A program made the position numbers and the translations under genes. Below the pieces are notes generated by a model, which saw nothing but the letters and a program-made list of their open reading frames with translations, was not told the origin of the DNA and made no database searches. Shown here piece after piece: positions 22,719 to 50,574 of a stretch of 64,000 bases of DNA (positions within the stretch are counted from its first letter, which is position 1; each line of letters opens with the position of its first letter). Origin of the DNA: Verrucomicrobiota bacterium. Lineage in GTDB: Bacteria; Verrucomicrobiota; Verrucomicrobiia; Verrucomicrobiales; V1-33. The stretch spans positions 8,236 through 72,235 of the forward strand of contig JAZKFB010000001.1 of assembly GCA_040386695.1 (NCBI GenBank). The letters are read 5' to 3'.

Positions 22719-23519
22719 ATGCCCTCCGTGATCTCCGAGCCAGAGCCTGAATCCATCCCCGTTCCTCACCGGCGGCCGGACAAACCGCGTCCTCCCCGCG
22801 AACTGATGAGCCGTTTCCGCGACCGCCGTCTGCTGGCTTTGCTGGTGGTCCTGCTGATTATCACCAACGCTCTCGTGCCCATGGCACTGGTGTGGATGCT
22901 TTACCGTGAGCAGATCGTGGTCGTCGCCGATGAGCAGGGCAACATGGTGATCGGCCCGGGAATGGATTTTCCGGACGCCTCCAGGCTCCATTCCATGGCC
23001 GGGCTCATGGCCACCAAGTCGCTGCTGGAGCGCAATCCCACGGGCTTTGACACTCCGGAAATGGTCCGCAACATGTTCATGCGCGACGCCTTCAAAAAGG
23101 CCCAGATCGAAATCACCGCCGCCATGCCGGAGCTGGGCCGCAGGGAGATTCATCAGAAGGTGGAGATTTCCAGCGTTGACGTGACCGGCGTCAGGCAGGC
23201 GGGTTCCGTGCAGGTTTATTACATCAAAACCACCGGTCAAATTATCCGCAACGGGCGGCTGGAGGGCACCGCGATTCAGGAGGCGGATAACTTTTCCATC
23301 CAGTACGAAATGTGGCGCAATCCGCGACTCACCCGCAACGGACGTTATCCGCTGGTGGTGACCAATTACCGCTATCTCCAGCTTGAACCCGCCAGCCCCG
23401 CGACCACCCGGCCGGCGGAAAACCACACTCCGGAAGATCCCGGCCCGGTTGAAAGTCCCGCCACCGTGTCCGGAACGGCAGCGGCAGCCGCGGAGAAAAA
23501 CGAGGAGGAGCAGCCATGA
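22719..23519 (+). CDS. trbF: TrbF/VirB8-like bitopic protein
   Basis: 266 aa with a single TM (LLALLVVLLIITNALVPMALVWML) followed by a periplasmic domain. The position in the operon fits. Confidence 0.65.
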   Translation: MPSVISEPEPESIPVPHRRPDKPRPPRELMSRFRDRRLLALLVVLLIITNALVPMALVWMLYREQIVVVADEQGNMVIGPGMDFPDASRLHSMAGLMATKSLLERNPTGFDTPEMVRNMFMRDAFKKAQIEITAAMPELGRREIHQKVEISSVDVTGVRQAGSVQVYYIKTTGQIIRNGRLEGTAIQEADNFSIQYEMWRNPRLTRNGRYPLVVTNYRYLQLEPASPATTRPAENHTPEDPGPVESPATVSGTAAAAAEKNEEEQP

Positions 23520-24556: not shown

Positions 24557-25861
24557 ATGAATCCCCGCCACATCATTTCCTTTTTCAAGACCCGGAACGG
24601 GATGCTCATCCTCTTCGCCACCGGGCTTCTGACGGCTCTCGGGGTGGCCAGCACCTACACTCAAAAATCCAAAGCGGAGGCGGCGGTCAAGCGCGGGGCC
24701 AAAACCACGGCTCCCCTGTCCGAAGTGCGGCCCGCCGCTCTGGAAACGGACAGCTACACTCTCCGCCGGAATTATGCTCCGGCCAGTTTCGGAGATGGAG
24801 GAAGCCAGCGGCGCATCATCGTGCAGCAGGCGGAGGAGAAGGCCAGACGCTCGGCGGTTTCAAAACAGAAACCGAAGCAGCCTGTAAAGCCGCCGCCCAT
24901 TCAGTTTCTCCGCCTGTCCGGCAATGATGCGCGGGAAAACACTCCTGTGGCGCTTGTTTCCCCAGGCGGAAAAAACGAGGAGCTGTTTCCCGAACTGAAG
25001 AGCGATTTCGCGCCCTACGGCCGACTTCTGCGCGCAAAACTGGTCACGACCGTGGATTCCAGCAACATGGCCACGCCGGTCATCGGCCTGGTCACGCATG
25101 ATCTGTATTGGAACAACCGGCTGCTCATTCCCGCGAATTCCGAAATTCACGCCACGGCGGTGCCCGACCGCGTGCGCAACCGGATCGAGGTGAACGGCAA
25201 ATGGGTGGTGATCCTCGCGCCGGGCGGCATGTATCCGGCCAGTTCGGAACTCATTCTCCAGGGGCTGGCGCTGGACATGGATCTGGATGCCAAAGACGAC
25301 CGCTTCGGCCTCAGCGATGGCAGCGCCGGGCTGCGCGGGACGATCCTGACCAACGAGAACACCCGGGACACGGTCAAACTCTTCGCGGCCACCTTTCTCG
25401 CGGGAACCTCCGAGGGCCTGACGGACCGGCAGACCAATGCTTTTGGAACCTCCCAGGTCATCCCCTCCCTCAAAAGCGGAGCGCTGCAGGGCTCGCGCGA
25501 GATCATGGAGAAATACGCCTCGCGCATCATGGAACTGATCGAGCGGGATGGAGCCTACGTCCGGGTGCCATCCGGCAAACAGTTTTATCTCTACATCAGG
25601 GAAACCCTTCAGCTTTCCAAAGCCAGGCTGGGAGCCACGCTTGCCTCGAACGCCCTGACCTCCTCCGAACCCGTGCTCTCCGCCGCGCGCGCCGACTGGG
25701 AGCAGGCCAAGCAGGCGGAACTCGACGCCCGCCGCGCCGCCGTCATCCAGCAGATGACTGAACAGACCCAGCGGATTCAAAACATGAAGCCGCAGTCCGG
25801 CGGCTCCACCTCCACCTCACCCAAACCGGCGGCGGCCACCGGTTCCCCCGCCATCCGCTGA
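24557..25861 (+). CDS. trbI: TrbI/VirB10-like core component
   Basis: 434 aa with an N-terminal TM and a proline/lysine-rich linker. The C-terminal domain carries LLIPANSEIHATAV...RIEVNGKWVVILAPGG...GLSDGSAGLRGTI, resembling the VirB10 barrel. Confidence 0.75.
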   Translation: MNPRHIISFFKTRNGMLILFATGLLTALGVASTYTQKSKAEAAVKRGAKTTAPLSEVRPAALETDSYTLRRNYAPASFGDGGSQRRIIVQQAEEKARRSAVSKQKPKQPVKPPPIQFLRLSGNDARENTPVALVSPGGKNEELFPELKSDFAPYGRLLRAKLVTTVDSSNMATPVIGLVTHDLYWNNRLLIPANSEIHATAVPDRVRNRIEVNGKWVVILAPGGMYPASSELILQGLALDMDLDAKDDRFGLSDGSAGLRGTILTNENTRDTVKLFAATFLAGTSEGLTDRQTNAFGTSQVIPSLKSGALQGSREIMEKYASRIMELIERDGAYVRVPSGKQFYLYIRETLQLSKARLGATLASNALTSSEPVLSAARADWEQAKQAELDARRAAVIQQMTEQTQRIQNMKPQSGGSTSTSPKPAAATGSPAIR

Positions 25862-35900: not shown

Positions 35901-36037
35901 GCTTGCCTGGGCTCCCAGGCTTCAGTGGTCCGGCCGGCTTCCAGCGCGGCATCGATCTGTCCCAGCCATCCCCGCCCGCGGCCGCGGCCCGCGAGGGAAT
36001 TCCCTGAGGGGTTTTCGTGCGGCGGCTGCCCTGTCAT
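32972..36037 (-). CDS. Membrane Ser/Thr protein kinase with a large extracytoplasmic TPR-like domain
   Basis: Hanks kinase motifs are GRGGMAAVY, AVK, HRDLKPSNILL, DFGLA and APE. One TM (LALLMSAAGVILLCLWGW) sits near residue 450, followed by ~550 aa of helical-repeat sequence. Confidence 0.9.
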   Translation of the reverse strand: MTGQPPHENPSGNSLAGRGRGRGWLGQIDAALEAGRTTEAWEPRQAGHLTDLLPAYRILSFLGRGGMAAVYLAEEKNSGQEFAVKLLPPELGEIPGLAARFRREARLLEGLTHPHIIRLHDTGETAEGHLFYVMEHVRGEDLARQMARSKPGLGEAVAILRQICEGVSHAHALGILHRDLKPSNILLGSGNLVKVGDFGLAVQEKPGNATRLTASGMAVGTLEYAAPEQLRGEPGTVASDIFSLGVIAYEMFTGVLPKGSFDAPSRQRRTVDPGFDSVILRALHPDPFRRQASVAEFQDGLAAAHETALLAGSIEVLGAEQAQVLEKIYKDAIETVPEALRHFVEDKLLTLSGYRESRTMEEALAQEGVTREAIDDLIARRLLRLEHRWGGERVEISHDLLALAVQASRDLRRAAAAEFQAAQRERALRRAGQRKLALLMSAAGVILLCLWGWSQHREARLRAVAENAARRHLTAMLEVSTGPMTDQLEQLGRLAVFDSLDAAAERALAEYAPQTRDQTFPIIEARYWDSRGMRLAARGRREEAQRAFITARARWRDQGQVMSSVLSGIKAAEQQWHQGLADAMDKTLAETRPDSMPPGKESRVMDTMLEVAAGRALELHGRLNEAVLKLSTAAALTESLAVDPDLSVFVTTALLTTRVSALSALAQARLDCGDFPGAESAVSCSIEAVRLLRQREPGNFRNAELEARALMLMVKIAGAQDNRDIQESHLLAQTAFTSSLCVRDPANVVWRGLLAASIGQKGQAMLGAGHPGEALGDLEAAARTMMEVAETDPTNEMWQWDAAGYLLQTGYALEDLGQNAEAEPFYRKAIERMIPFANSPDSPSAARLYGLSAAIGNLGDCLKRQKRFTDAAAYYQTWVDRAAAGTEPIWTFIAAIAGHEIAGMERVPSRIADAVARHRAVLQLWGRFFSSIRESDRPQPGWAWRHRPAAACTETAQDALRSSDPEAARAGLEMAREALKVFFPESVKGLFAYPAKDEAARSALVSLLTGKLPATPASGNP

Positions 36038-36214: not shown

Positions 36215-37888
36215 ATGAGAAATTGGCTTTTAATATTCAATTTTGGCATACTTCTCACCTCCAGCGCCACCGCGCAGGTGCCGCAATACATCTTGGAGCT
36301 GGGATTAAGAAATAGCAATCTCACCTTGAAAATCACCGGATTTCCGGAACAGGGGCGGAACCCGCAGATTCACTGGCAGGACGGAAAAACATATCCTTTC
36401 ACCAAACGCGCCGACTCCCTGCGGTGGACCGCCAACCTTCCCCCGCCCAATGATCTTCAGATCGCTCTGGGGGCGCTTTCCAAAAGCCGGTCGGAGAAAA
36501 CAGTGACTCTCTGGAATGGACACTCCCCTCTCAGGGTGAATGTCCCTGGGAGGACGATTCCCCTGCCGGCGAACCTGCCCATCACCCTCAGCGCCGTGGA
36601 TATGGCGGCGGTTGTTCAAACGAACGAACGGGATCTTCCGGTTCTTCCGGACAGATCTTTAGTCATTACCCACCGATATGTGCTGGATCATCCTACCGAG
36701 ACTTTTGATCCTTATTCCCTCATCAAACCGCGCGGCATGCCCAGGGGCCGGAGCGATGGGGCATGGTCCTTTCCACACATCCTGTCAAAACTGCTGAAGC
36801 AGAATTACAACCCGGACACCACCCCGGAAGCCGTGAAGGCAAACGCGAAGTTCGCCAAAGTCCTTTCCGCTTTCGCCGGCCAGTGGGAGGCGAAGAATGC
36901 GTTGGGAATTCCTGCCGATAAACAATTTCTCCAAGAGGTGGTGCAGCCGTGGCGGGATAAAAGCGCGCTTCTACAGTATCCATCGGGCCAGCTGGCTCCG
37001 CACCTCGCGCCTCTCCGGCTGCTGGCTATCGTGAACCGCATTGATCTCCGCGAGAATTTTGCCTTTGGAGGAGCCAGCGGCGGCGTGCCGTCCAACGCCG
37101 GCAGACTGCACTTTGTTTTCGGTTTCATCTCCCCGGATGGCCAGGCGCTGGAGGGGCGGCTGATTGTGGAAATCCGTGTGAAAAAGAAAGGGGAGCAGGA
37201 GCTTTGGAAGTGGGCGCGGCAATGGCAGGACCTGACCAAAGAATGGCCCCTCAAGACGAAAATTCCCTCCGAAAATTACATTAGGGCTCTGAAAAAGCTC
37301 ACGGAGGACGTTCTTGATCATTCGGGTGCCCTCTCCAGCATCCGGACAAATGAGAAAGTGGACAGCCTTACGCCCCCATGGGATATGCGAGAATTTGTCC
37401 TCAATCCACAAAGCAAAGTTCTGGATTCCGCACGTCTCACCCAAACTCCCGATAGAAAAAACTTTTCCGCCGGACAAATGTGGCTTGAAAAATTTTGCGC
37501 CGGGCCTCAGGCGGACGACCTCATTAAAAGGGGTGCCTACAGGCTTCCTGATAACATTCTGGCTCCCATCACCTCAGCGGACAATGAACAGCTTAAATTC
37601 AAAGCAGGCAGTGAAAGCCGCCGCCATCTCATCGCCTTGAACACCTGTAATGGATGCCATGGCCCGGAAGCTAAACTGACCGTAAGCGGCATTCCTGATG
37701 ACCGGTTCTTCAGCCACATCAGCCATCCCGGCAAACCGGGGCCGGTGACTTTATCCGACTTTCTGATGAAGACGGACATGGAGCGGCGGAGAGCCTCGCT
37801 GACCGCGCTTCTGCTCCCCTCCAAAACGCTCCGGACCCTTTGGGATCTGACATCCGCGGGAGGCTCCATGTCAGGATCCGGTCACTGA
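36215..37888 (+). CDS. Secreted protein of unknown family with a single C-terminal CxxCH motif (paralogue A)
   Basis: Signal peptide MRNWLLIFNFGILLTSSATAQ. Blocks shared with 41303-42556 are LRLLAIVNRIDL, GRLHFVFGF, IRTNE, WDMREFVL and LNTCNGCHG. Confidence 0.6.
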   Translation: MRNWLLIFNFGILLTSSATAQVPQYILELGLRNSNLTLKITGFPEQGRNPQIHWQDGKTYPFTKRADSLRWTANLPPPNDLQIALGALSKSRSEKTVTLWNGHSPLRVNVPGRTIPLPANLPITLSAVDMAAVVQTNERDLPVLPDRSLVITHRYVLDHPTETFDPYSLIKPRGMPRGRSDGAWSFPHILSKLLKQNYNPDTTPEAVKANAKFAKVLSAFAGQWEAKNALGIPADKQFLQEVVQPWRDKSALLQYPSGQLAPHLAPLRLLAIVNRIDLRENFAFGGASGGVPSNAGRLHFVFGFISPDGQALEGRLIVEIRVKKKGEQELWKWARQWQDLTKEWPLKTKIPSENYIRALKKLTEDVLDHSGALSSIRTNEKVDSLTPPWDMREFVLNPQSKVLDSARLTQTPDRKNFSAGQMWLEKFCAGPQADDLIKRGAYRLPDNILAPITSADNEQLKFKAGSESRRHLIALNTCNGCHGPEAKLTVSGIPDDRFFSHISHPGKPGPVTLSDFLMKTDMERRRASLTALLLPSKTLRTLWDLTSAGGSMSGSGH

Positions 37889-38017
37889 GAACGCCCGCCC
37901 GCCCGGGCTCTCCGCCTCCCCGAGGAAAACAGACCTCATGGAGCGGGTCCTTCCGCGCGTGCCGGAGTCCCGGCGGGCCAGACCACGCGGCTAATGGGGC
38001 TAGCTGCGGAGCGTAAC

Positions 38018-39460
38018 TCAGGCTCCATGAAGGGTCACCAGCCTTTTCTCCGCTTTGCTCCTCCGGTGCGGATCCAGGCTTTCGCACTCCACAGCCGTGG
38101 ACAGATGCCGTTTGGCCAGCTCCTCCCAAGGCTGGGGATTCCTCATCTGCCGGGAGCGCACGCGGGCGCTGGCCGAGCATCCCAGGGCATAATGCGCGGC
38201 GGCCGCATCCGGCCCCGAAGGATGCGGGACCGCCAATTTTTTCAAACTGGCCATTTCCAGAGGCCGAACCCTTGCACTGCGGTAAAAAAACGCGCGCGCT
38301 GCCTGCTTCATCAGCGTCTTCTGTCCGGTGATCTCGCTGAAAGCCGCTTTGGTGTCCGCCTGAAAGGGCAAAACCCGCACCTCTAGGGTATTGGACCTCA
38401 GTCTCCTTCCGAGGGACACGTCAAAGGTGGCCCACAGACGGTGCTTGCCAATATGCCGGAAAGTGTAGCCGCCCGCCTGGCCAAAGATGCTGAGATCCTT
38501 GGTGATGGTCTCGCCTGGCTGAAGAACCAATGGCGGAGGAGACCCGCAAAAGCGCGTGGTGGGCCGGTAGCGGCGCCTTTCCCCGCTGGGCTCCTCAATC
38601 CAAAGGGTGAAACTGCCGTAGCCCGGATGCAGTTCATCCGGAACCGGAGCGCTCCTCGCCGCCGACTCATTGAGGCGCAATGAGATCAGAAGTTCTACCG
38701 GCGAAAACGCCCAGAAATCAGGCACCGGCATGCTGATCTCAAAATGCCAGCGCTTTCCTCCGCCCCGGACCCCCGGACGCGCTCCTCCATCCGCCGCGCT
38801 GTCGATCCCAAAATTTTCAAAAGCGCTCCCGCCTGGCTGCACCGCCCCATCCGACGAGCACTGGCTGAGCCAATCCTTCTGAAAGGGAAGGAACTGATAG
38901 GCGGGAAGATCCGGCGAAGCATCCAGATTACTGGTGTTTAAAAAGCACAGGTCCGGTTCCCAATGGTGCAGATTGAAAAGGTGTCCAAGCTCATGGACGC
39001 TGGTGAAGGCCACCTGATCAAGGTATTCCCCAGGACTGCGGATTTTCCCGATGGCATCCAAAAACACCGCGCAGCCCTCCCGGGGAGAGCCCCCCTGGCC
39101 GCCCTGCTGCCAGACATCAAAATCCCCATCAAACATGAATCCGAAAAGGCCTTTCCGCGGAGCATACACATTCGAGAACAAAAGCCCCAGATGGCTCACA
39201 GGGCCTCCGCTTGGATTGCCCGTCAGCTGGACGAGGGCCTCCTGAAGGATCCTCTCGTCCACACTGATGTATTCCGGGCTGAAAGGCGTGCTCAAGGCGC
39301 TGGCATCCCCCGTCAGCGAGATGTCCATATTGGAGGCATGGAGAAAAATCTCCTCCAGAGTGCTCCTGCCACCCTCGGGATCCGGGACCATCATCGGATG
39401 ATCCGGCAATCCATGGGAAATCATTCCCACCTGTCCCCATCTGCACGATAACTGGATCAT
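38018..39460 (-). CDS. Metzincin-motif zinc metallopeptidase-like protein, no obvious signal peptide
   Basis: SVHELGHLFNLHH fits HExxHxxxxxH. 480 aa. It is the last gene of a five-gene minus-strand cluster. Confidence 0.55.
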   Translation of the reverse strand: MIQLSCRWGQVGMISHGLPDHPMMVPDPEGGRSTLEEIFLHASNMDISLTGDASALSTPFSPEYISVDERILQEALVQLTGNPSGGPVSHLGLLFSNVYAPRKGLFGFMFDGDFDVWQQGGQGGSPREGCAVFLDAIGKIRSPGEYLDQVAFTSVHELGHLFNLHHWEPDLCFLNTSNLDASPDLPAYQFLPFQKDWLSQCSSDGAVQPGGSAFENFGIDSAADGGARPGVRGGGKRWHFEISMPVPDFWAFSPVELLISLRLNESAARSAPVPDELHPGYGSFTLWIEEPSGERRRYRPTTRFCGSPPPLVLQPGETITKDLSIFGQAGGYTFRHIGKHRLWATFDVSLGRRLRSNTLEVRVLPFQADTKAAFSEITGQKTLMKQAARAFFYRSARVRPLEMASLKKLAVPHPSGPDAAAAHYALGCSASARVRSRQMRNPQPWEELAKRHLSTAVECESLDPHRRSKAEKRLVTLHGA

Positions 39461-39513
39461 AATTTATGTCTGGATTGCCTAAGTTTGTGGATCTCATCCC
39501 GCCAGCCGACCGG

Positions 39514-40656
39514 TCATTTGACCTCTACGAGACGGGTTTTGGACTGGTTGCCTCCGTTTCCGACTCTGAAGCTGATCTTCACGCGGTACAGTCCTGCCGG
39601 AGTGGTGTCTTTGCGTTTAATAAACAGGCCATGTCCTTCTGAGGCCGACCGAAGTTCGAACAGATCGCTCACCTCCTCATCAGGGGAATCCTCCCGCGCC
39701 ACTTGGCACTCCCTCAGATTGACCACCGCCCTCTGGTCCATGAAAACCGTAGCCCCGGGACTTAGCCGGATCCTTGGCTCCGGATCATCAGACTTCGCCG
39801 CCGTTCCTCCTGTGCCGGTCCCGTCCCCGGCCGGAGCCGATGGCGCCTTGACCGTTTGAAACCGGATTTGCCGCTGCCCGCCGCCGGAGCCCCCATCCCG
39901 CAGCTTGAAATTCATGGGTTCTAGGCGCACTCCCCCGGTGAATGGATCCTCGACAATACGGTAGATGACCGGTCCTGCCGCCAGCCCCCGGAGGCTTCCG
40001 CCAGAGCTTCCGCCCGTTGTTAGCCCGGGATCATCAAATCTCCCCGCCTCCTTTTTGGCGAAAGTTTCCTGCAGCGCGGCTTTCTCCACCTCCCGCTTCG
40101 CGGCGGTCAGAGCGACTTGAGCGCTGGCTGCCAGCTCCTGGTTGCCGCTCAGCTGCGCGGACTTCAAATCCTGCTCCGCAAACTTCACCTGTTGCGCGGC
40201 GGTTTTGACAGCCTGTTCTTTTGCTCTGAGATCGGTATTGGCGGCATTGGCCGCTTCGCGCCTGGCACTTCGGTTCTCTCCGGCCGAGGTGGCCATCTGC
40301 TCGCCGACTTTTCCAGCGGACTCCAGTAACTTGGAGGCCACGGCCGTGCTGTCCTGACTCAGCTCCACCTTGGTAAGCAGCATCTTGGCGTCACGCGCGA
40401 TATCCGCTTTGTGTTTTGCCATGAAGCTCCAGCTGTTCACAGCATACTCATGCTCCATGTCCGGGATCAGCTCGACACTGTAAATGATCTTCCCGTCCGG
40501 AGCAGGCTTTCCCACAACCACCGGCATGGGGAGATAATAACGCAGTCCCCGCGGATTGCTCCCGGGAGTGACTTTGGTCACCCCAACATGGCTGACACAG
40601 CCGGAAAGCAGGCAGGCCGCCAGAATTGGAATGAAAGGCAGGAATACTCTTTTCAC
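39514..40656 (-). CDS. Lipoprotein with a central coiled-coil and a Gly-rich C-terminal half (lipoprotein 2)
   Basis: A GTG start at 40656 gives MKRVFLPFIPILAACLLSGC (lipobox), 1 nt after the upstream stop. The N-terminal domain is paralogous to that of 40658-41194 (RGLRYYLP...ELIPD). Confidence 0.6.
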   Translation of the reverse strand: MKRVFLPFIPILAACLLSGCVSHVGVTKVTPGSNPRGLRYYLPMPVVVGKPAPDGKIIYSVELIPDMEHEYAVNSWSFMAKHKADIARDAKMLLTKVELSQDSTAVASKLLESAGKVGEQMATSAGENRSARREAANAANTDLRAKEQAVKTAAQQVKFAEQDLKSAQLSGNQELAASAQVALTAAKREVEKAALQETFAKKEAGRFDDPGLTTGGSSGGSLRGLAAGPVIYRIVEDPFTGGVRLEPMNFKLRDGGSGGGQRQIRFQTVKAPSAPAGDGTGTGGTAAKSDDPEPRIRLSPGATVFMDQRAVVNLRECQVAREDSPDEEVSDLFELRSASEGHGLFIKRKDTTPAGLYRVKISFRVGNGGNQSKTRLVEVK

Positions 40657-40657
40657 T

Positions 40658-41194
40658 TTAGTAAATCGTGTTGTGGAAAGGCTCAAAACCGGCATCGCCC
40701 AGCAATTCCCAGGTGTTACCATTCTGTTTGATTTTAAAAATATAAACTTTTGGCGCCGCGTTGCCCCCGTCGGCCGCCCGCTGAGCGGAGGGATCGTCAA
40801 AGGCCTGCGCCTTCACCGCCGCCGCCGCGACCTTGGTGGCCGCGTCCAGGAAAGCCGAGGGCACCGCAGTCCCGTCTCCTTCCGAAACTCCCTCAGTGAG
40901 AACTCCTTCGGAAAAAGTGAACTTGGAGGTATTGCTGGCCAGAAATTGGAAAGGATGCGCCTCCCTCAGCTTGGTGAGGTCCGGAAGATACTTCAGGGAG
41001 CTTTCAAGTCCGCCATTTCCGTCCGTCTGCACAACCAGATAGGGTGAGATGTCGTAATAACGGAAACCCCGTGCTTTCTTGTCAGCGGCCGCGTCAAGAG
41101 CCCGGTGAGAGACTCCCGAGCATCCGGCGCAAAGTACCCCACAGAGAAGAAGGGCGGTCCAGTTTCCAAGGGCAAATAAAGGTGGTTCAGGCAT
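40658..41194 (-). CDS. Lipoprotein (lipoprotein 1)
   Basis: Lipobox VLCAGC; 178 aa. The RGFRYYDISPYLVV...KYLPD block is shared with the downstream lipoprotein. Confidence 0.6.
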   Translation of the reverse strand: MPEPPLFALGNWTALLLCGVLCAGCSGVSHRALDAAADKKARGFRYYDISPYLVVQTDGNGGLESSLKYLPDLTKLREAHPFQFLASNTSKFTFSEGVLTEGVSEGDGTAVPSAFLDAATKVAAAAVKAQAFDDPSAQRAADGGNAAPKVYIFKIKQNGNTWELLGDAGFEPFHNTIY

Positions 41195-41302
41195 GGTGGG
41201 ATAAGATGATGGTTTGGATATTCAAGCTGGCGTTTCCAAGGTTCCGGGACTGGCTTACGGACTGGGCCGGTCAGTCCGCTTTCCCGGAACGGAAACCAGA
41301 TT

Positions 41303-42556
41303 TCAATGGACGCGCGCCGCCCGGGCGATGAGGCTGGCTTTCAGCTCCGGATCATCGGCCGCGCTGGGGCCTCTGAGAAATTCCTTCAACAACGACTCCC
41401 GGATACCCATCTCATTGTGCGCCGTGCCGGCCTGGCCCGGCAGCCGGTGCGCTAAATTTATCTGCCCCGTGAGAAAGTCCGATAAATTTGGCGCCCTCAC
41501 GCCTATGTGCTGAAATGGTGTTCCGGTGTCCCCGGCATGGCAGCCACTGCAGGTGTTGAAGGACACTATAAATCCGGCGCGCTGCAAACGCTCCGGCTGA
41601 TCTCCCGGAAAAATTTTCCAGGTGAACCCGAGATTCGGTACGCGCGCCGTGGCTCCCGCAAGCTGCGGTGGAAATTCCACCTCCGCACCCTGTAGGATCG
41701 GATCGGTTTTCAGCTCCACAAATTGTCGGAGTTTATCGCTTCCCGCGAAATCGGCGGACGGGGTTAGGCCCACTTTTTCCTGCTCAAGACTCCTCTTTCC
41801 CCCATGAAAATGAAACTCCCGGAGTTCCCAGATGGCTGGCGCGGGACCAGAAGGCTGGATAATTTCATTTGTCCGCACCTGATTCAACATGCCATGCGCC
41901 GAAAAACGGCCCGTGATTTCAGCCAAAGCATCCAGATAATCTTGGTTGAAATCAGTGAATGAGCCGAGCCGATGCCAGTCAGCCGCCCACTGCTGGAGGT
42001 TTTCTTGGGAGGAGTCGCCTGGCAGCCGGTATTCAAAAATCAGCGTGAAAGGCTCAGGGTTGGACCCATTCTTCATAACTTCATAAATGAAGCGTCCCTC
42101 TCCCAGCTTAACGGGCAGTCGGCTTCGGTCATTATGCGGAAATTTTGTCAGATCCAGCCGGTTCACTACGGCGATCAGCCGGATACGATCCTCTTTCCAC
42201 GCCGAACGCAGAGCGGCCGCGACCCAGGACCGGGCGGTAAAAGCGCTGGCCGTCTCCGGAACTGTGGTATTTTTCTCCCATGTTGCAAACCACGCTTCCG
42301 CAAACTGCTCCACATCCGCCGCCGTGCCGTCCGGGTTGTTCCCCGCGATACGCCTCAAAACTTCCTTGATATGCCATGGACCGTTTTTCCCCGCTCTGGG
42401 CGATTCCATCACCGCGGAATCCGTGATGAACAATTCCTTTTTCGGAACGACTCTGACATCCGTATCCGCCAAAGCCCCCGCCACGCTCAAAACGCCCGGT
42501 ATCAGCAGGAGGCTCAGCAATTTTTGATGTTTTTTCATGGGATTGTATGTTTTCAT
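41303..42556 (-). CDS. Secreted protein of unknown family with a single C-terminal CxxCH motif (paralogue B)
   Basis: Signal peptide ...LLIPGVLSVAGALA. Blocks IRLIAVVNRLDL, GEGRFIYEV, VRTNEI, WELREFHF and FNTCSGCHAGD align with 36215-37888. Confidence 0.6.
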   Translation of the reverse strand: MKTYNPMKKHQKLLSLLLIPGVLSVAGALADTDVRVVPKKELFITDSAVMESPRAGKNGPWHIKEVLRRIAGNNPDGTAADVEQFAEAWFATWEKNTTVPETASAFTARSWVAAALRSAWKEDRIRLIAVVNRLDLTKFPHNDRSRLPVKLGEGRFIYEVMKNGSNPEPFTLIFEYRLPGDSSQENLQQWAADWHRLGSFTDFNQDYLDALAEITGRFSAHGMLNQVRTNEIIQPSGPAPAIWELREFHFHGGKRSLEQEKVGLTPSADFAGSDKLRQFVELKTDPILQGAEVEFPPQLAGATARVPNLGFTWKIFPGDQPERLQRAGFIVSFNTCSGCHAGDTGTPFQHIGVRAPNLSDFLTGQINLAHRLPGQAGTAHNEMGIRESLLKEFLRGPSAADDPELKASLIARAARVH

Positions 42557-42576
42557 GCTTTGAATGGCGCATCACG

Positions 42577-43026
42577 CTAACTAGCATTGCGTGCCGCTAA
42601 TTTTTTATCCTCCGCTTCCGCCCCCCGGATCTCCCGGACATTGCGCACATAGACAAGAGCCTCTTTCCAGAAGGCCGATCCGCTGCTCGCGAAGACGCCC
42701 ATCACCACCACAATACTGCAGGCGGACACCCTGTCGGACTGCAGGGCCGGAAACAAACTGAGAATGGCCGGGCTCGCCAGGCTGGCGGTGAGGATACCCG
42801 AGCCAATGGCGATCAGCTGCACCTTGGCCTTTCGTTTCTCCTCCTTTTTCTCCGCCGCCTTGGCGGCATCGCCATCTGGCTGAGCTGCCGTCCCCGCAGC
42901 AGCGGCAGGGACGGGAGCCCCCGCGGCCAGTCCGGTCAGATTTCTCACGATTTCCACCAGACGCTCCGACGCAATACTGATCGCGATCAGAATGGACACG
43001 GCGGCGGTAAGATTGGTTGTATCCAT
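42577..43026 (-). CDS. Small membrane protein (about 3 TM) with a charged A/K/E linker
   Basis: 149 aa. Hydrophobic segments are AAVSILIAISIA, LIAIGSGILTASLASPAILSLF and ACSIVVVMGVFASSGSAF. It is the first gene of the cluster and ends 21 nt upstream of the next start. Confidence 0.5.
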   Translation of the reverse strand: MDTTNLTAAVSILIAISIASERLVEIVRNLTGLAAGAPVPAAAAGTAAQPDGDAAKAAEKKEEKRKAKVQLIAIGSGILTASLASPAILSLFPALQSDRVSACSIVVVMGVFASSGSAFWKEALVYVRNVREIRGAEAEDKKLAARNAS

Positions 43027-43416: not shown

Positions 43417-46400
43417 GGGTCCTCAGGGAAAACGGAATAAATCGTACGCTAAGGGCTGAAGCCGGGCCTGAGTGGCCGCAATTTACCCGCTCTGTCCTTG
43501 GAAAGTGCGGGCCAGAGATAATCACCGCTCAGATTGATGTGTTCTCAGCCCAGCGGGGACGGATATTGCAGAAGCTGGTCATCATCAGCGGCATCTTTCC
43601 TGCTGAGGGATTCGATGCAGCGCTGCAGGTAGGTGGTGTTCCAGAGGACGATGGCGGCGATGACGAGGCTGAGATCGCTGGCGCGGTGACGCTGCTGGTC
43701 GAAGCTGCGGTCCCGGATTTCGCCGAGGCGGTGGAAGAAGACTGCCCGCGCCAGGGCGTTGCGGGCCTCGCCTTTGTTGAGTCCGGCATGGCGCGCCGGC
43801 GCAGTTCCGTGCTTTGCAGCCACGTGAGAATGAAAATGGTGCGCTCGATCCGCCCGAGTTCGCGCAGCGCCAGAGCGAGCCCGTTTTGCCGGGGGTAGGC
43901 GGCCAGCTTCCGGAGAATGAGTGAGGCGGTGACTGTGCCCTGCCGGATGGAGGGGGCCAGGCGCAGCAGGTCCTCCCAGTTGGCTTTAAGGTGGGACAGG
44001 TTGATTTTCCCTCCGATCAGGGATTTCAGGGCGGGATAGTCCGCCTCCGGCCTGGGCACAAAGAGGCGGGTCTCGTTCAGGTCCCGGATACGCGGGGCAA
44101 ACTTGAACCCAAGGAGGTGCATCATGCCGAAAACATGGTCGGTGAACCCGGCGGTGTCGGTGTAGTGCTCCTCGATGCGCAGATCGGACTCATGATAGAG
44201 AAGCCCGTCGAGGACATAGGTGGCATCCCGCACGCCGACATTGACCACTGTGGTGCTGAAGGGAGAATACTGGTCCGAGAGGTGGGTGTAAAACATCCGT
44301 CCGGGATCGGAGCCATACTTCGGATTGACGTGTCCGGTGCTCTCAGCGCGTCCGCCGGATTTGAACCGCTGGCCGTCTGATGAGGACGTGGTGCCGTCGC
44401 CCCAGTGGCGGCGAAGGGATGCCGGAGCTGGGCATTGACCAAGTCAGCCAGCGCGGCCGCATAAGTGTCATCGCGGATGTGCCATGCCTGCATCCATGAG
44501 AGCTGGGAATAGGGAATGCCCGGACTGGAGGCCGCCATTTTCACGAGTCCGAGATTGATGGCGTCGGCCAGAATAGCGGTGAGGAGGAGCGCTTTGTCTT
44601 TGACCGGTTCCCCGGTTTTCAGGTGCGTGAACTGCCGGGTGAAGCCCGTCCAAGCGTCAACCTCCAGGAGCAGTTCCGTGATTTTGATGTGCGGCAGCAG
44701 GGCCGCCGTCCGGTCGATCAGCTCCTGGGCGGCGGGGGGAACAACCGCGTCCAGCGGAGTCATTTTAAGCCCGGCTTCGGTGATGATGGCGTCCGGCAGA
44801 TTATTGGTCAGAGCCAGCCCGTTCACGATTTCAAACTGCTCCTCCAGCAGGGTGGTCCGCTCTCTGATCCAGTCGTCCCCGTCGGTTTTCACGGACAGCG
44901 GAATGGTGCCTGTTTTCCTCAGCTCCCCGAAAGCCGGAGCGGGAATGAGGTAATCCTCAAAGTCCTTGAACTGGCGTGAGCCTTTGACCCAGATGTCGCC
45001 CGAGCGCAGGGCGTTTTTCAGTTCGCACAAAGCGCAGAGCTCGTAGTTGCGCCTGGTCCGTGCGCACCAGCTTTTCCCAGCGCTTTCTGATGAAGGCCGT
45101 GGGCGCGCCCGCAGGCAGCTCTTTTAAAGACCCAGCATGAAGCGCCTGAATTTGCTCCACAGCCTCCAGCACCGGCCGGCCGGCGGGAGCGGCTTTGAAC
45201 TGAAGTGCTTCCAGCATAGCGGGCGCATAACGGCGGATGGTCGGCCAGCTCTCCGCCAGCAGGTGGAGGAAATCGAACTCCTCCGGCTGGGAAAGTTTGC
45301 CGGTCTCCGCGACACCGGCCGCGAACTCCTCCCATGGCATCACGTTCTCAATGGCCGCGAAGGCATCGCCTCCCTCCGCCTTCGCTTTCACCAGCGCGCG
45401 GCCGATCTTTCCATAAAGCAGAAGCTGGTCGTTGATCCGGCGGCCGGACTGCTGGAAACGCTGCTGATGTTTGTGGCGGGCCGCATTGAGCAGCCTGCCG
45501 ATGATGCGGTCGTGAAGATCAATGATCTGGTCGATCACCGTGGCCGTGCCCTCGACAGCCAGAGCCACTAGGGTGGCATATTTCCGCTGAGGCTCATACT
45601 TTCCAAGGTCCCGCGAAGTCATCTGCCCGCCCTCACGCGCCATCTTCAGCAGGCGGTTCTGATGAATCCGACGGTCCAGACCATCCGGAAGCCCCAGAGA
45701 CTGAAATTCCCGGAGCCGGTCAATGTGCTCCATCATCTGGCGCGAATTGGGCTTCAGAGGGGACTGGCGCAGCCATGTGATCCACGTCAGACGGGTGCCC
45801 GGTTTCACCCTCAGCCACGCGTCCAGCCTCTCCTGCTGAGCTGTGGAGAGTGAATCCGCAAGAAGGGCACAAACTCTCCGATTGGCCTCGGTGATGGATG
45901 ACGCGCAGAGCCGGTCCAGCACTTCCACCGGAGGAGCAGCCACTTTAAGACGCCGCCATTCCTCCATGGCTTTGGCCGCCAGCAGAGCCCCTTTGTCCGT
46001 CCGCATGGCGAGCGCGCACAAAAACGACCTCGAACGCCGGAAATCACTGAGCCTGAAGGGCGTGAGCTCCAGCCAGGACCGGAGTTCCACCAGATGCTCC
46101 CGGCGGGTCTGTGCCCGGGAGGCATAAGACAGCCAGCAGGAGGTATCGATCCGGAGCTGACGCCCAACCCATTGGATCACGGTATCGCTGACCTCCCTCC
46201 CCGCCTCCAGTCCCCGCCCCGGAAACCGGAGCAGGCAAAGCTGCACCGCAAAGCCCAGCCGGTTGGCCTCGCCCCGCCTCTGCCGGATGAGGGAGAGATC
46301 CCTTTCGCTGAAGGAATAATGTCTGGCGAGCTCCTCCTCCGTTGCGGGTGGAGACATCAAATCTGAACGCTCGGCGGGGGTCAGGAGAGATTTACGGGGC

Positions 46401-46503
46401 ATTTTCCTCCGCTACCCCATGCGGAAACTCCCCTAAACAGAGTCTGCACCCCGGGCGTGGAGCCTTAGCGTGCAATTTTTTCCTTTTTCTGTGATCACCC
46501 CCC
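43417..46503. mobile_element. Minimal Tn3-family element (IR-tnpA-IR, no resolvase or cargo), decayed
   Basis: The left IR at 43417-43454 is GGGTCCTCAGGGAAAACGGAATAAATCGTACGCTAAGG. The right IR, read on the reverse strand, is GGGGGGTGATCACAGAAAAAGGAAAAAATTGCACGCTAAGG and ends at 46503. The two IRs are about 29/38 identical and both resemble Tn21. No 5-bp target duplication is evident. Confidence 0.8.
43449..46402 (-). pseudogene. tnpA: Tn3-family transposase, multiply disrupted
   Basis: The N-terminus is MPRKSLLTPAERSDL...RLGFAVQLCLLRF. The reading frame jumps at about 45.0, 44.2 and 43.8 kb. TGG has become TGA at 43545-47, inside SPLG(W)[11 protein letters not shown]. The reconstructed frame stops at a TAG inside the IR (43449-51), as in Tn21-type elements. 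Confidence 0.85.
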
Positions 46504-46566: not shown

Positions 46567-49500
46567 TCAGCCACCGGGTGTTGTCAGGGAAAACCGCAGA
46601 CGCAGAAACCGCGAGGGACTCTCCCCTGCGGGCACAGTGTCCCGGAAGGTGACGAATTTAAAACCGGAAGGCGCGGGGACTGCGCCGGCGGGGACGGGGA
46701 CCGCAGGGGCGGGAGTCCAGACAGATCCTCCGTTCCCGCTCTCCGCGGACAGAATGGCCTCCTCCGCCTGGGTGCTGATCCGCCATGTGGCAGTAAGAAA
46801 ACGCGCTCCGCCGCCGCCGCCGGCCGCTTCCGTCAGATGCACTGCGGCGGGCTGCCTGAGTCCCGTATTTCCGTCCGCAAGAACCGGCACGCCTCCGAAG
46901 ACGTATTCCTCCAGATTGCTCAGACCATCGCCATCAGCGTCCGCCTGCGGAAGAGTTTCCGGCAGATCGCGCGCGGCCCCGCCCTCAGCGGAGGAGCGTG
47001 AGGCCAAAGCAAAATATCGGTCCTGCCAGGCATTCCAGGTCAGAGGCGCGGCGAACCCCGCCGGAGCGCCGCTCCAGAAGCCGCCGGTGGTCCAGCTGGC
47101 GGGGAAACCGGGGTCGGGCGCGGCGGCCGGATTCCTCAGCACCAGCGCCGGCCCGCTCCCGTCCGCCGCTGCGGGCCAGGGGGCGGCATCATCGTAGCCA
47201 AAGGCCAGAACCGTGTCCGGCAGATCATCCGCGTCCGGTCCGTCCGCGCCCGTGAAGCGCAGGAACTCCCCGGCGTTGTCCAGCTTCCCGCTGTAAGCTC
47301 CGGCCACGCGGGCGGCGGCATCCGTGCCGTAGCGGCGGCGGAAGGCTTCCGCGTTTTTCACCAGCAGCACGGACTGGCCGGGGCTGAGCGTTCCGATGCG
47401 GCTCTGCGCGAAATCGAAGGTGATGCCCTCCGCAGCCCGCAGAGCGCTAAGGTCCACATTCCGGGAGCCAATGGCGGTGAGCTCGATAAATTCAAAATCA
47501 TCGGCATCATCAAATCCCTCCGCAGCCTCTTCCGCTGATGATCCGGGAGGATGGTAAAGAAGCTGGCTCAGCACCAGATTCCCTGCGGCGGCGGGTACGG
47601 GCGGGGAGGCGAAATCAGCCTCCGTCAGGGCGCTCCATTCGCCGGTGGAGGCATTCCGAACCCGCGCCTTCACGGTGACGGCGGGCAGGGCGGACAGGTC
47701 CAGGGCGGTGGTGTGAACCTGCGCGGTGGCCGACACTTCGCCTCCAAAGGCCCGCGGGTCCGTGTTGTCGAGCGTGAAATAAATAACGCTTCCGGCCGGA
47801 ACGGAGGGGGGAACGGCCAGACTGAGTTTTTCCCCCGGATCCAGCGCTCCGCCGTGATGGCTCAGCACCGGAGGCTCGGTGGATGGCCAGAGGCCATGGC
47901 GCCTGAAAATCCCGGTTCCGGAGACGCCCGCGCCGCCGAAGAGATGGCTGCGCCGTCCGCCGGAGGCCCGGACCCAGTTCGTCCAGAAGCTTTGATTCAC
48001 CGCCTGCCCGTGCGTGAACTGCAGCAGCGGCTGGAAGGCCGCGACCAGCGCATTCTTTTCCCTGACAAGACTGGATCCGGTCAAATCCCGGTCATCCAGC
48101 GCGCCGCCGTTGAAGAAATGCCGCTGGATGCGGTCGGCAAAACGAAGCCTCGCCTCCGCGCTGGCATTGATGGCGCGGAAGAGCGCGGGCAGACTGCCGT
48201 TCAGGCTTTTCAGATCGCTCTGGATCGTGTCAAAACTGACCGGTTTATTCGTGTTGTGCGCGAAGCTGATTTCGGAATCCCACAGGTACAGTCTCCAGCG
48301 GCCCTCCAGCCGGCGCTCGCGGGCGGCGACCCAGTTGTTGTTCGGCCAGTCGCCCTGCGCCGTGTAGGTGTTGATCAGGAAATAATCGATGATCTCATCC
48401 AGATCGATGGCGGCCATCGCCGCGTCATAGTGCGCCCGCTGCGCCAGATTTTTGGTCAGCGCGGCCATCATTGATTTCCAGCTGTCGGTGTCGCCGTCCT
48501 CCACGGCGTCGCGGATGATGATGTCCCAGTCCGGACCGCCGCCGTGATGCTGCTGAAAGAAGGAGGTCCGGTAACGCTCCACGGTGTTGTAGAATCCTTT
48601 GTAGATTCCGTTGATGTAAAGAGTGTTCAGCACCCCTTTGGAGACCGGATGCCCCATGCGGATAAAGGTGCGGCGGATAAGCTCGTCCTTGATGAAGGGA
48701 TTCTGGATATCATTCTTCCCGGCGCGGGCCCTCAGATTATCGAAGGTCCGGACAGGATAATCCTCCCCGAAAACCGGATACTTCAGCTCCTCCGCGCCAT
48801 AATCCCCGCGGAAGAGAATATTCCAGCTGGGCTTTTCCACGGGCAGCGGGGCAAAGGGGGACTCCGCCGTGCGCTGGAGCTGCAGGCGCGGACGGCTGTA
48901 AGGGCTGCTGGCCAGACGCAGGCCCGCCGCCTCCTTAAAACCCGGGCGGCCATCTCCGGGATACCATTCCACAAAAATGGAGCGCTCATACGGGCGTCCC
49001 TGCATGAGGGCGATGTTGTAGTCGTCCGTGCGGGTGGAGACCCAGAGATCCGCGGGGTAGGCGCCGCCCTGGATGGCGGCGATGCCGAAGGGTTTATAAA
49101 AATCCCGTCCCGGGTCCCCCGTGAAAAGCAGCGCCGTCGCCGTGCGCAGCCGGGGATCCTGATCGATCAGATAGGTGGCGGAACTGGTTTCCGAGGGCAC
49201 GGCCTCCCTGAGAAAAGCCCGGGCGCGCAGCGCGTGGCCGGTTTTCGCCGTCAGGGGATTCAGTGTCAGGGGCGCGGTGTAAAGCGCGCCCCTGTCCGCC
49301 CGGGGCTCCGTGCCGTCCAGTGTATAGCGGATTTCCGCGCCGGGCGTGGCGCTGGCCAGGGTCACGGTCCGCGCTCCGCTGTAAAATCCGCCGGGCGGTG
49401 AGAGCACCGGTGCCACCGCTTTGAGCGCGAACGATGGCCCCGTATTGACGGCTCCCGGCGTGGGCACGCTGAAAAAGACGTGTCCGCCGGATTCTGAAAC

Positions 49501-50574
49501 CCCATAGCTGTGAAAAGCGTCCTGAGGCGGATAGGCCAGGCTGTTCCGCAGCGCGCCGGCCGGGTCGAAAAGCAGCACCTCCTCGCCGCCCCGGCTCAGC
49601 TTGAAGGAGGCGTGCAGGTATTTGAGACCCGGCAGCGCGTTGTTCTCATCGCAGAGGACCAGCAGCCGCTCTCCGGGCGCGATCACCGTGTTTTCCGGAA
49701 AGCGCCACTGACCCGGCTTTGCGGGATCATCGGTCAGCGTCCAGCCGGCCAGGGAAACGGCGGCGGCTCCGGTGTTGTGCAGTTCGATCCAGTCCGCGAA
49801 GGGCGGAAAATCAGGAAAGGGCGCGGCTTCCCCGGGCTCGCCCTGAGTGTTGGGGACGGGTGGAAGATTCGGTTCAAAAATCCCGCCCGAGGGCTCGCCG
49901 CGGGTGGCGTGGAAAGCCCAGGTGTCCCCCCGGATCACCGGCGTTTCCGCCCCGGCGGCTCCGGGGCTGAGTTCCAGCGAGGCATCAAAACGCAGGTTTC
50001 CCTTCGCATCCCTGGAGTAGTTATGCACCTGAAACGCCAGAAGGTTCTCCCCCTCTTTCAGCAGTCCGTCCAGGCCGGTGAGGGTGAATGTCTGCGCCAC
50101 CGAGGCGCTGGTGGCTTCCGTGAAGGCCGTGTGATCCGCCCCCGCGAAATAACCCTTCGGACCCAGCCGGGCGCGGGCGATTTCCCTTCCGTTCAGATAG
50201 GCGGCAAAACCGTCGTTGTACTGCACGGAGAGCTTCAGGGTGGCCGACGAGGCCGCGCCGGCGGACAGGGTGAAGGTTTTCCGGGCATACAGCGAGGGCG
50301 TGATGCCGTTCATTCCAACCGCCAGATCGGTGGCCAGACCCGTGAAGCCGAACCCGAGCGGCGCTTTGCCGGAGGCCCAGGCCGCTGCCGGAAACTCCGC
50401 GTCATACCAGACCGGGCCGGTCCCCGCCACCGTCCGTCCTTTTTCATCCTGCCGCAGCAGGCGCTCCGAGGGCGCGGCGTGAAGCTCACTGATCACCACC
50501 TGCGCGCCCGCCGGCAGAGCGTGGGCTGGAATAAGAAAAGCCATCGCCGCGGCGGACGGAATAAAACGGTTCAT
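46567..50574 (-). CDS. Giant secreted protein with lamin-tail (LTD) domains, a CotH kinase-like domain and chitobiase-C-like modules
   Basis: A signal peptide is followed by VVISELHAAP (LTD). WIELHNTGAAAVSLAGWTLTDD is a second LTD. GAEIRYTLDGTEP and VIYFTLDNTDP are the chitobiase-C-like modules. The CotH-like block is IKDELIRRTFIRMGHPVSKGVLNTLYINGIYKGFYNTVERY. DDFEFIELTAIGSRNVDLS is a third LTD, and a DADGDGLSNLEEY motif is also present. Confidence 0.75.
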   Translation of the reverse strand: MNRFIPSAAAMAFLIPAHALPAGAQVVISELHAAPSERLLRQDEKGRTVAGTGPVWYDAEFPAAAWASGKAPLGFGFTGLATDLAVGMNGITPSLYARKTFTLSAGAASSATLKLSVQYNDGFAAYLNGREIARARLGPKGYFAGADHTAFTEATSASVAQTFTLTGLDGLLKEGENLLAFQVHNYSRDAKGNLRFDASLELSPGAAGAETPVIRGDTWAFHATRGEPSGGIFEPNLPPVPNTQGEPGEAAPFPDFPPFADWIELHNTGAAAVSLAGWTLTDDPAKPGQWRFPENTVIAPGERLLVLCDENNALPGLKYLHASFKLSRGGEEVLLFDPAGALRNSLAYPPQDAFHSYGVSESGGHVFFSVPTPGAVNTGPSFALKAVAPVLSPPGGFYSGARTVTLASATPGAEIRYTLDGTEPRADRGALYTAPLTLNPLTAKTGHALRARAFLREAVPSETSSATYLIDQDPRLRTATALLFTGDPGRDFYKPFGIAAIQGGAYPADLWVSTRTDDYNIALMQGRPYERSIFVEWYPGDGRPGFKEAAGLRLASSPYSRPRLQLQRTAESPFAPLPVEKPSWNILFRGDYGAEELKYPVFGEDYPVRTFDNLRARAGKNDIQNPFIKDELIRRTFIRMGHPVSKGVLNTLYINGIYKGFYNTVERYRTSFFQQHHGGGPDWDIIIRDAVEDGDTDSWKSMMAALTKNLAQRAHYDAAMAAIDLDEIIDYFLINTYTAQGDWPNNNWVAARERRLEGRWRLYLWDSEISFAHNTNKPVSFDTIQSDLKSLNGSLPALFRAINASAEARLRFADRIQRHFFNGGALDDRDLTGSSLVREKNALVAAFQPLLQFTHGQAVNQSFWTNWVRASGGRRSHLFGGAGVSGTGIFRRHGLWPSTEPPVLSHHGGALDPGEKLSLAVPPSVPAGSVIYFTLDNTDPRAFGGEVSATAQVHTTALDLSALPAVTVKARVRNASTGEWSALTEADFASPPVPAAAGNLVLSQLLYHPPGSSAEEAAEGFDDADDFEFIELTAIGSRNVDLSALRAAEGITFDFAQSRIGTLSPGQSVLLVKNAEAFRRRYGTDAAARVAGAYSGKLDNAGEFLRFTGADGPDADDLPDTVLAFGYDDAAPWPAAADGSGPALVLRNPAAAPDPGFPASWTTGGFWSGAPAGFAAPLTWNAWQDRYFALASRSSAEGGAARDLPETLPQADADGDGLSNLEEYVFGGVPVLADGNTGLRQPAAVHLTEAAGGGGGARFLTATWRISTQAEEAILSAESGNGGSVWTPAPAVPVPAGAVPAPSGFKFVTFRDTVPAGESPSRFLRLRFSLTTPGG

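Follow-up and report, generated by a model that had tools for sequence, protein, structure and literature searches.

A 64,000-nucleotide stretch of DNA from a Verrucomicrobiota bacterium (GenBank assembly GCA_040386695.1, contig JAZKFB010000001.1, positions 8,236 to 72,235; termed here the window) was found to carry a conserved, tightly coupled and horizontally mobile three-gene operon, C-D-E. The operon, referred to below as the triad, encodes two paralogous lipoproteins, C and D, followed by a signal-less, metzincin-like protein, E. In the window it lies within a cluster of six genes, A to F, and this cluster is a composite, carried as cargo on an integrative or conjugative element (ICE) and made up of the triad core, a separate family of secreted CxxCH proteins (B and F) and an accessory gene, A. 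Judged from its genomic context, the triad is read here as a conflict system, the likeliest form being a defence cassette against phages or mobile elements, and this reading is held tentatively, with a confidence that falls a little short of even.

The six-gene cluster

The open reading frames (ORFs) of the cluster were as follows, A being the first gene and C the first of the triad.

42577-43026, minus strand: gene A, 149 aa, with three hydrophobic segments at aa 6, 71 and 100 by hydropathy
41303-42556, minus strand: gene B, 417 aa, with a Sec-type N terminus, CSGCH at aa 336-340 (41537-41551) and His as its last codon (41306-41308)
40658-41194, minus strand: gene C, a 178-aa lipoprotein, with the lipobox CAGC (41120-41131) followed by a G-[FI]-R-Y-Y N-terminal domain
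39514-40656, minus strand: gene D, a 380-aa lipoprotein and paralogue of C, with the lipobox LSGC (40597-40608)
38018-39460, minus strand: gene E, 480 aa, signal-less and metzincin-like, with HELGHLFNLHH at aa 156-166 (38963-38995)
36215-37888, plus strand: gene F, a 557-aa paralogue of B, convergent with E, with CNGCH (37646-37660) and a C-terminal His

The gaps between A, B, C, D and E measured 20, 108, 1 and 53 nt in that order, the GTG start of D lying 1 nt past the TAA stop of C. The N terminus of F was signal-peptide-like (MRNWLLIFNFGILLTSSATAQ). GC content was slightly lower across the cluster (0.57-0.60) than in the adjoining 2-kb windows (0.61-0.66), and scans of the window for promoters and terminators gave a signal no better than that of shuffled sequence.

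The relationships between the paralogues were examined by BLASTP, which aligned B with F at 24% identity (E=2e-17) and C with D at E=9e-9. F also aligned with the wider B family, and the families of C and D matched each other by hhalign with a probability of 99.6% (E=1e-24, 123 columns). The six ORFs described in the initial annotation, with their coordinates, starts and motifs, were all confirmed from the sequence, and the paralogy that it had claimed for B and F and for C and D is borne out by these comparisons. Its description of the genes as uncharacterised also stands, since none of the six proteins gave a significant match in Pfam, NCBIfam, PADLOC or PHROGs. The sole hint in these curated-family searches was a sub-threshold archaemetzincin (M54) match around the HExxH motif of E.

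The C-D-E triad recurs as a unit

Homologues of E, together with an E-profile pattern scan of 185,579 species genomes, yielded 39 loci with a full-length relative of E. C-like and D-like ORFs were present directly upstream of E, in the order C-D-E and on the same strand, in 36 of these 39 loci. Stop-to-stop distances within the triad equalled the gene lengths, and start/stop overlaps of 4 nt were frequent at both junctions, which suggests translational coupling. The genes on either side varied from one triad locus to the next, and neighbourhood comparison found no fourth gene family common to more than three loci.

The triad was found in at least eight bacterial phyla, its hosts being alpha-, beta- and gamma-Proteobacteria (Pseudomonadota), Verrucomicrobiota, Planctomycetota, Acidobacteriota, Bacteroidota, Myxococcota, Nitrospinota (Nitrospinaceae) and Syntrophales, and the phyla were intermixed in the tree of E. 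The E family was rare yet diverse, with 329 clusters (50% identity) at E<=1e-30 among 1.84 billion representatives. Mirror-tree correlations between C, D and E were moderate (Pearson 0.55-0.67) and add little beyond co-transfer.

Two further observations were made on the triad loci. Genes for tRNA or tmRNA lay within 10 kb at 7 of the 39 loci, which is not above expectation. A tRNA gene lay within ~600 nt of the triad in three of them (L032, 11408-11483, Gly-ccc; L033, 3908-3980, Arg-ccg; L038, 7308-7392, Leu-cag), and these are compatible with insertion of the triad at tRNA hot spots. In addition, a contig labelled as uncultured Bifidobacterium (L042) carried C and D with a lipobox, together with an E that grouped with Limisphaerales (Verrucomicrobiota), and this contig is probably mis-binned.

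Protein E is a predicted metzincin-type protease

The AlphaFold2 (AF2) model of E (pLDDT 91.8, pTM 0.91) was divided into a catalytic domain (aa ~1-215), a beta-sandwich resembling immunoglobulin (Ig) and fibronectin type III (FnIII) domains (aa ~236-365) and a helical domain (aa ~371-479). In Foldseek searches the catalytic domain matched the archaemetzincin 2x7m (prob 1.0, TMt 0.55), OgpA 6z2o and PAPP-A, while the sandwich domain matched GH3 FnIII, Spo0M and RbmA. A Foldseek search of viral structures with the E model returned only Ig-like domains and weak matrixins. With the E family profile, matches were obtained to ADAMTS-1/4 at the zinc site (E=9e-6) and to archaemetzincin (E=3e-4).

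Residues H156, E157, H160, N163, H166, G107, M109, F110 and R127 were invariant in all 56 aligned E-family sequences, and HExxHxxNxxH was present in 39 of the 41 locus-derived sequences used for the tree. The invariance of the zinc-site residues indicates that E is under selection to stay catalytically competent. E is accordingly a predicted metzincin-type zinc endopeptidase with an intact catalytic site, closest to the archaemetzincins, and the sequence suggests that it would be active as a protease.

The zinc site HExxHxx[G/N]xxH is common to E, the archaemetzincins and ADAMTS (HELGHLFNLHH in E, HELGHVFNMPH in ADAMTS-1/4), and E as well as ADAMTS-1/4 has Asn at the Gly position of HExxHxxGxxH/D. 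E also shares with the archaemetzincins a similar catalytic fold, and its family has a hydrophobic residue, usually Met, 8 positions past the third His. This position (174), where a Met-turn would lie, held Met in 37 of the 56 sequences and Leu in 18, the E of the window having Leu. E differs from the archaemetzincins, however, in lacking the Cys4 second zinc site, in its additional Ig-like and helical domains and in its operon linkage to two lipoproteins. The second, structural zinc site (Cx4C...CxxC) was absent from the alignment of the E family, and E scored below the cut-offs of the curated models (12.5 versus 24.4 bits for Pfam PF07998; 20 versus 145 bits for NCBIfam NF033823). Because both the curated score and the Cys4 site fail, E is not to be filed as a member of M54; it is a remote, sub-threshold relative of the archaemetzincins with a new architecture. 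One true archaemetzincin of 191 aa, from Desulfobacterales (HELGHLFNLFHC), did appear among the distant matches of E, with the motif HELGHLFNLFH and the second zinc site.

No signal peptide was present on E, and in both the family alignment and the AF2 model residues 2-11 formed a conserved core beta-strand of the catalytic domain. E is therefore predicted to be cytosolic, and the envelope or periplasmic location first proposed for the whole gene set does not extend to it. In the public annotation of the source metagenome-assembled genome, E begins at residue 23 and has 458 aa, and B begins at residue 7 and has 411 aa; as the N-terminal strand of E is conserved, the public start of E is too short and the 480-aa start is supported.

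Relatives of E of ~690-1070 aa were also observed in actinobacteria, in Streptomyces (L050, L052, L054-L057, L063, L071, L072, L084 and L086) and in Egibacteraceae (L049). These proteins had the same protease-sandwich-helical core, with HELGHVFN[ML]xH and hemopexin-like N-terminal repeats, and were standalone, without a signal peptide and with variable neighbours.

Lipoproteins C and D, and the accessory protein A

The lipobox Cys was invariant in the alignments of both C and D and was followed by G-[IF]-R-Y-[YF]. By regular expression, a lipobox-like motif was detected in 34 of the 36 C-family ORFs and in 31 of the 36 from the D family. The residue at position +2 was Ala, Ser, Val or Thr and never Asp, which by the E. 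coli rule suggests sorting to the outer membrane. No transmembrane (TM) segment was found in C or D, the C termini included. Both proteins are predicted on these grounds to be exported and lipid-anchored.

D consists of a C-like N-terminal domain, a helical/coiled-coil insert of ~115 aa, a C-like beta motif and a C-terminal Ig-like domain. In profile searches of the PDB the helical part gave weak coiled-coil matches and the C-terminal part weak Ig-like matches, and nothing meaningful was found with the C and D profiles. All database relatives of C and D were labelled hypothetical, and searches of Pfam with all family members produced scattered weak matches only, for example to DUF4831 (E=0.018, three members).

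Among the loci retrieved, an A-like gene occurred elsewhere only in L023 (Prosthecobacter), where it lay directly upstream of C, and it was missing from 35 of the 36 triad loci. Searches of Pfam, NCBIfam and PHROGs with A returned only insignificant holin and ribosomal-P matches (PHROG holin, E=0.16). A is a rare accessory, a small, predicted inner-membrane protein of the same verrucomicrobial lineage as the link between B and E described below.

The three TM segments of A and its insignificant holin match, the long coiled coil of the lipoprotein D and the lack of a signal peptide on E could together point to a phage-lysis-like or type-10-like export cassette, in which A would act as holin, C and D as spanin-like lipoproteins and E as a released cargo or a wall peptidase. 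Such a cassette is scarcely credible given the near-complete absence of A from the triad loci. C and D lack a C-terminal TM segment and show no embedded Rz/Rz1 arrangement, the fold of E is that of a metzincin rather than of a muramidase or LAS peptidase, and no relatives were found in phage or IMG/VR collections.

B and F belong to an independent family of secreted CxxCH proteins

A database search with B returned 91 homologues, all hypothetical, and in one metagenome scan 432 or more of the first 600 pattern matches were confirmed as relatives. The hosts included Verrucomicrobiota, Myxococcota (Sandaracinus, Sorangium, Corallococcus) and Thermoanaerobaculia, and some low-GC members had lipoprotein-type N termini. 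Across the 82 aligned members the N terminus was signal-peptide-like or carried a lipobox (34/82), and some members had He_PIG or LamG domains. Exactly one C-[SN]-G-C-H was present in all 82, the last residue was His in 80, and position +10 after the motif His was H in 70, Q in 9 and M in 3. R133, D135, R228, R246 and R386 were invariant, and B itself has only two Cys, both in CSGCH. The single CxxCH near the C terminus and the Sec-type N terminus that had been noted for each paralogue were thus upheld for B and F. The two motifs singled out at the outset, CxxCH and HExxH, both proved to be conserved among homologues (C-x-G-C-H in 82/82 of the B family; H156/E157/H160/N163/H166 in 56/56 of the E family).

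The AF2 model of B was confident (pLDDT 92, pTM 0.90) and found no match in the PDB by Foldseek (best E=0.46). The B-family profile showed a weak likeness to class I cytochromes c around the motif (c552/c555, per-domain E=0.06-0.6), and neither B nor F matched a cytochrome c family in Pfam or NCBIfam. B and F resemble the class I c-type cytochromes in having CxxCH within a Sec-exported protein, in the helix that precedes the motif, as in c552/c555, and in the conserved H, M or Q at the candidate distal-ligand position. They differ in having an unrelated N-terminal domain of ~330 aa and the conserved C-terminal His (80/82). The most economical reading is that B and F are exported mono-haem c proteins with a new catalytic or binding domain, to which haem would be attached at the motif. 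The lack of a cytochrome fold for B by Foldseek counts against this, the motif being the only ground for haem.

The distribution of B was compared with that of the triad. No relative of C, D or E lay near B in any of 80 metagenome B loci, and gene look-up found none in L001, L003 and L004. When five earlier B loci were rescanned, such a relative was detected near one only (L005), where B was followed directly by an E-type protease (E') without C or D. In the E tree the B-associated E' proteins formed a recent sister clade to the E of the window, inside a verrucomicrobial clade, and the link between B and E is therefore lineage-specific. The B/F family is independent of the triad core; B normally stands alone and was recruited beside E-type proteases in one verrucomicrobial lineage only.

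Other neighbours of B were also noted. A contig with the closest C homologue (L171, 66% identity by tblastn) carried at 477-4260 a B gene, an E paralogue with Glu as third zinc ligand (HELGHVFNLQE), a 470-aa Ferritin-like protein (PF12902), a 261-aa protein of no assigned family and then C. A RoxA-like di-haem cytochrome c adjoined the B homologue in L001 (8077-9810), and a 102-aa protein with CTCH lay just upstream of B in L003 (9051-9359, Sandaracinus); these may be redox partners of B homologues in some lineages. One recurrent neighbour was considered as a functional partner of B and rejected, as it turned out to be a PAS-histidine-kinase hybrid present in multiple copies in contigs closely related to one another.

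The initial annotation had treated the six genes as one self-contained periplasmic or outer-membrane module, for which a redox or metal-handling role around the two CxxCH proteins was considered. The tight, co-directional arrangement of A-B-C-D-E in the window accords with it, as does the adjacency of B to E-type proteases in L005 and L171. A contig with a 55%-identical B homologue also carried genes of matching size (134, 414 and at least 152 aa, in that order), a correspondence by size only. On the co-occurrence data, however, the single six-gene module was rejected and its redox or metal-handling form is largely refuted, with very little probability left to it: besides the 80 metagenome B loci without C, D or E, all 36 triad loci lacked B, 35 of them also lacked A, the E' proteins belong to one lineage, and E is predicted to be cytosolic. 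The expectation that the set would co-occur elsewhere was met in part, holding for C-D-E and failing for the full set.

Genomic company of the triad and a possible role in defence

The 130 nearest genes of the 36 triad loci, two on each side, were compared with the PADLOC models and matched 76 PADLOC families. These matches included KwaA (4e-72), KwaB (7.5e-124), a CBASS cyclase (1e-131), PDC-S48, PDC-S31, MADS mad2/3/8 and methyltransferase/restriction endonuclease models. As a control, the 130 nearest genes of B-family loci matched three PADLOC families, all weakly.

At individual loci, the triad stood between a 1658-aa STAND-like NTPase and a cyclic nucleotide (cNMP)-binding TIR protein in Pseudomonas (L007), while in Sphingomonas (L168) its surroundings included a resolvase and a type I restriction enzyme. 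In L169 it directly followed Tra/Trb conjugation genes and preceded transposases and an M78-UvrD-PDDEXK protein, and in L170 it adjoined prophage terminase and portal genes. The earlier hint of a redox or metal role is not what this company suggests; the PADLOC neighbours point instead to conflict and defence.

Several observations weigh against a defensive role. PADLOC counts are made per model and not per protein, so that nine cyclase models may be one protein, and the control loci came from different taxa and shorter contigs than the triad loci; the contrast between triad and control is large nonetheless, and it also sets the triad apart from the B family. Several triad loci had an ordinary-gene setting, one of them beside a resistance-nodulation-division (RND) efflux operon (L172), and housekeeping Pfam families (ribF, nrdD, transporter genes) were found among the triad neighbours. 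None of the six proteins matched PADLOC-DB v2 at E<=1. The triad was also absent from the collections searched, namely plasmids and phages (with E and B), IMG/VR (with E) and E. coli genomes (with the triad DNA). The topology is a further problem, C and D being exported and E cytosolic, with no conserved membrane-spanning partner.

The ordinary neighbours (the RND efflux operon of L172; ribF, nrdD and transporters), and the fact that two of the three products are lipoproteins, would fit a role outside conflict, in regulated proteolysis or in lipoprotein or envelope homeostasis, exerted from an accessory operon. This role is improbable in view of the extremely patchy and rare spread of the triad, with ~40 full-length matches in the pattern scan of species genomes, the mixing of phyla in the E phylogeny and the ICE, prophage-adjacent and defence-island settings.

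The topology would be explained directly if E were a delivered or secreted antibacterial metzincin, exported without a Sec signal, and C and D, as periplasmic inhibitors, shielded the producing cell and its kin. A signal-less metzincin beside exported lipoproteins, tightly co-translated, is the arrangement expected of such a system, and toxin-immunity modules also sit in variable islands and ICEs. Type VI secretion systems (T6SS) are commonly carried by many of the triad host genera, for example Pseudomonas, Janthinobacterium, Cupriavidus and Flavobacterium, which counts in the same direction. On the other side, no VgrG, Hcp, PAAR, type I secretion system (T1SS) or RTX features were present in the six loci annotated gene by gene with Pfam, nor among the top 25 of 91 neighbour Pfam families, where weak matches may escape. 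The first residues of E already belong to the catalytic domain and no known trafficking domain is present in it, the hosts include Caulobacter, Sphingomonas, Planctomycetota and Nitrospinaceae, and the actinobacterial E-like proteins are signal-less and standalone. It would be atypical for two paralogous immunity genes to be strictly kept and to be conserved to about the same degree as the toxin, and the neighbours are enriched for anti-phage genes. Taken together, a delivered protease is considered quite unlikely.

A defence cassette remains the favoured reading. In it, C and D would probably form a heteromer through their shared N-terminal domain on the periplasmic side, D having, beyond its C-like part, a long hairpin of helices and an Ig-like domain. 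Their envelope-side function may be in sensing, or in the exclusion of incoming DNA or phage. E would be a cytoplasmic proteolytic effector, with the sandwich and helical domains as sensor or regulator, and it may be physically linked to C/D.

A more specific form of this reading is an envelope-coupled immune system of a new class, in which the lipoprotein pair reports the state of the envelope or of export and the cytosolic metzincin responds, combined with B and F, independently, as a new haem-c fold that uses the C-terminal His as ligand. The combination is unlikely. Its relay could operate by surveillance of export: a phage or incoming element would perturb Sec, Lol or the proton-motive force, unexported lipoprotein precursors would pile up, and these might bind to E at its sandwich and helical domains, so switching on an abortive-infection protease.

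Context of the cluster in the window

The remaining features of the window relevant to the setting of the cluster were as follows.

6727-8325: RepA-like, conjugation region
17079-19811: TraG/VirB4-like ATPase, conjugation/type IV secretion system (T4SS) region
23516-24553: CagX/VirB9-like, T4SS
24557-25861: TrbI/VirB10, T4SS
26609-27607, plus strand: ClpB-like AAA_2 ATPase, immediately following the T4SS genes
32972-36037, minus strand: Ser/Thr kinase, 1021 aa (Pkinase, E=2.7e-44), with C-terminal tetratricopeptide (TPR) repeats, divergent from F
43529-46402, minus strand: decayed Tn3-family transposase, DUF4158 and DDE_Tnp_Tn3 over ORFs 44957-46402, 44122-45030 and 43529-44296
46567-50574, minus strand: 1335-aa secreted protein with Lamin-tail, CHB_HEX_C and CotH domains
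103-2580, plus strand: 825-aa BspA-type leucine-rich-repeat protein

The window belongs to an integrative or conjugative element, or to a plasmid-like region. The description of the cluster as conjugative-element cargo agrees with the RepA-like, TraG-like, CagX/VirB9-like and TrbI genes at 6.7-25.9 kb, and the cluster is bounded by the decayed transposase, in three overlapping frames, with the T4SS genes on the other side. No tRNA was found within the 64-kb window.

A signalling pair of an extracytoplasmic function (ECF) sigma factor and a Ser/Thr kinase had been placed next to the cluster. The kinase is present at 32972-36037, and the ECF sigma factor was not found; candidate sigma ORFs near the kinase turned out not to be sigma factors. 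The kinase domain matched the PD-T4-6, mad6 and Stk2 models of PADLOC, a generic Hanks-kinase likeness. The ClpB-like ATPase matched PDC-M37B (1e-19) and Dodola DolB (1e-15) over the AAA domain only, a likeness that is generic too, and the 242-aa ORF upstream of it had no DolA-like match. The 1335-aa and 825-aa proteins are unrelated to the triad and to B and F.

Comparison with known systems

No description of the triad or of the B/F family was found in searches of the full-text literature. As there was likewise no match to curated families or PADLOC systems, the triad falls outside every described system with which it was compared; it is an undescribed cassette, and no curated family covers C, D or B/F. 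The six genes resolve into two defined families, the triad and B/F, with C-D-E as the minimal cassette. B/F is a large, soil-dominated secreted family that combines a confident model with no solved match, CxGCH and a C-terminal His, and is a candidate new haem enzyme.

If defensive, the triad would be a three-gene cassette that has escaped annotation although it occurs in at least eight phyla, with an archaemetzincin-like effector and an exported lipoprotein pair, neither of which has a counterpart among described systems. It would also provide the first bacterial biological context for the enigmatic archaemetzincin lineage. By analogy, E could be set beside Lit and other protease-based defence effectors (CapP, Borvo CHAT and the bacterial gasdermin proteases), with which it shares a proposed role as cytosolic protease effector and a location in defence islands. 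These systems differ from the triad in having no sequence or PADLOC match to E, and to our knowledge an exported lipoprotein pair occurs in none of them.

With regard to the exported partners, the AprA-AprI/Inh serralysin pair and T6SS effector-immunity pairs resemble E and C/D in placing a signal-less metzincin or effector beside Sec-exported partners. The triad differs in that the partners are two, paralogous and encoded upstream, and neither genes of a T1SS or T6SS nor RTX repeats or trafficking domains were observed. Llp, Cor and TraT are small lipoproteins that mobile elements encode and that oppose the entry of phage or plasmid at the envelope. They are, however, single genes without a protease partner, and no homology to C or D was detected.

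Kiwa and Zorya couple an envelope component to a cytosolic effector, as is proposed for the triad, and one triad locus adjoins a Kiwa system. The envelope components of Kiwa and Zorya are integral inner-membrane proteins that reach the cytoplasm, in contrast to the lipoproteins C and D, which have no TM segment and no homology to them. That the partners are exported while the protease is predicted to be cytosolic poses a testable puzzle about relay from envelope to cytoplasm, and culturable sources of the triad are available in Pseudomonas frederiksbergensis, Sphingomonas, Janthinobacterium and Flavobacterium piscis.

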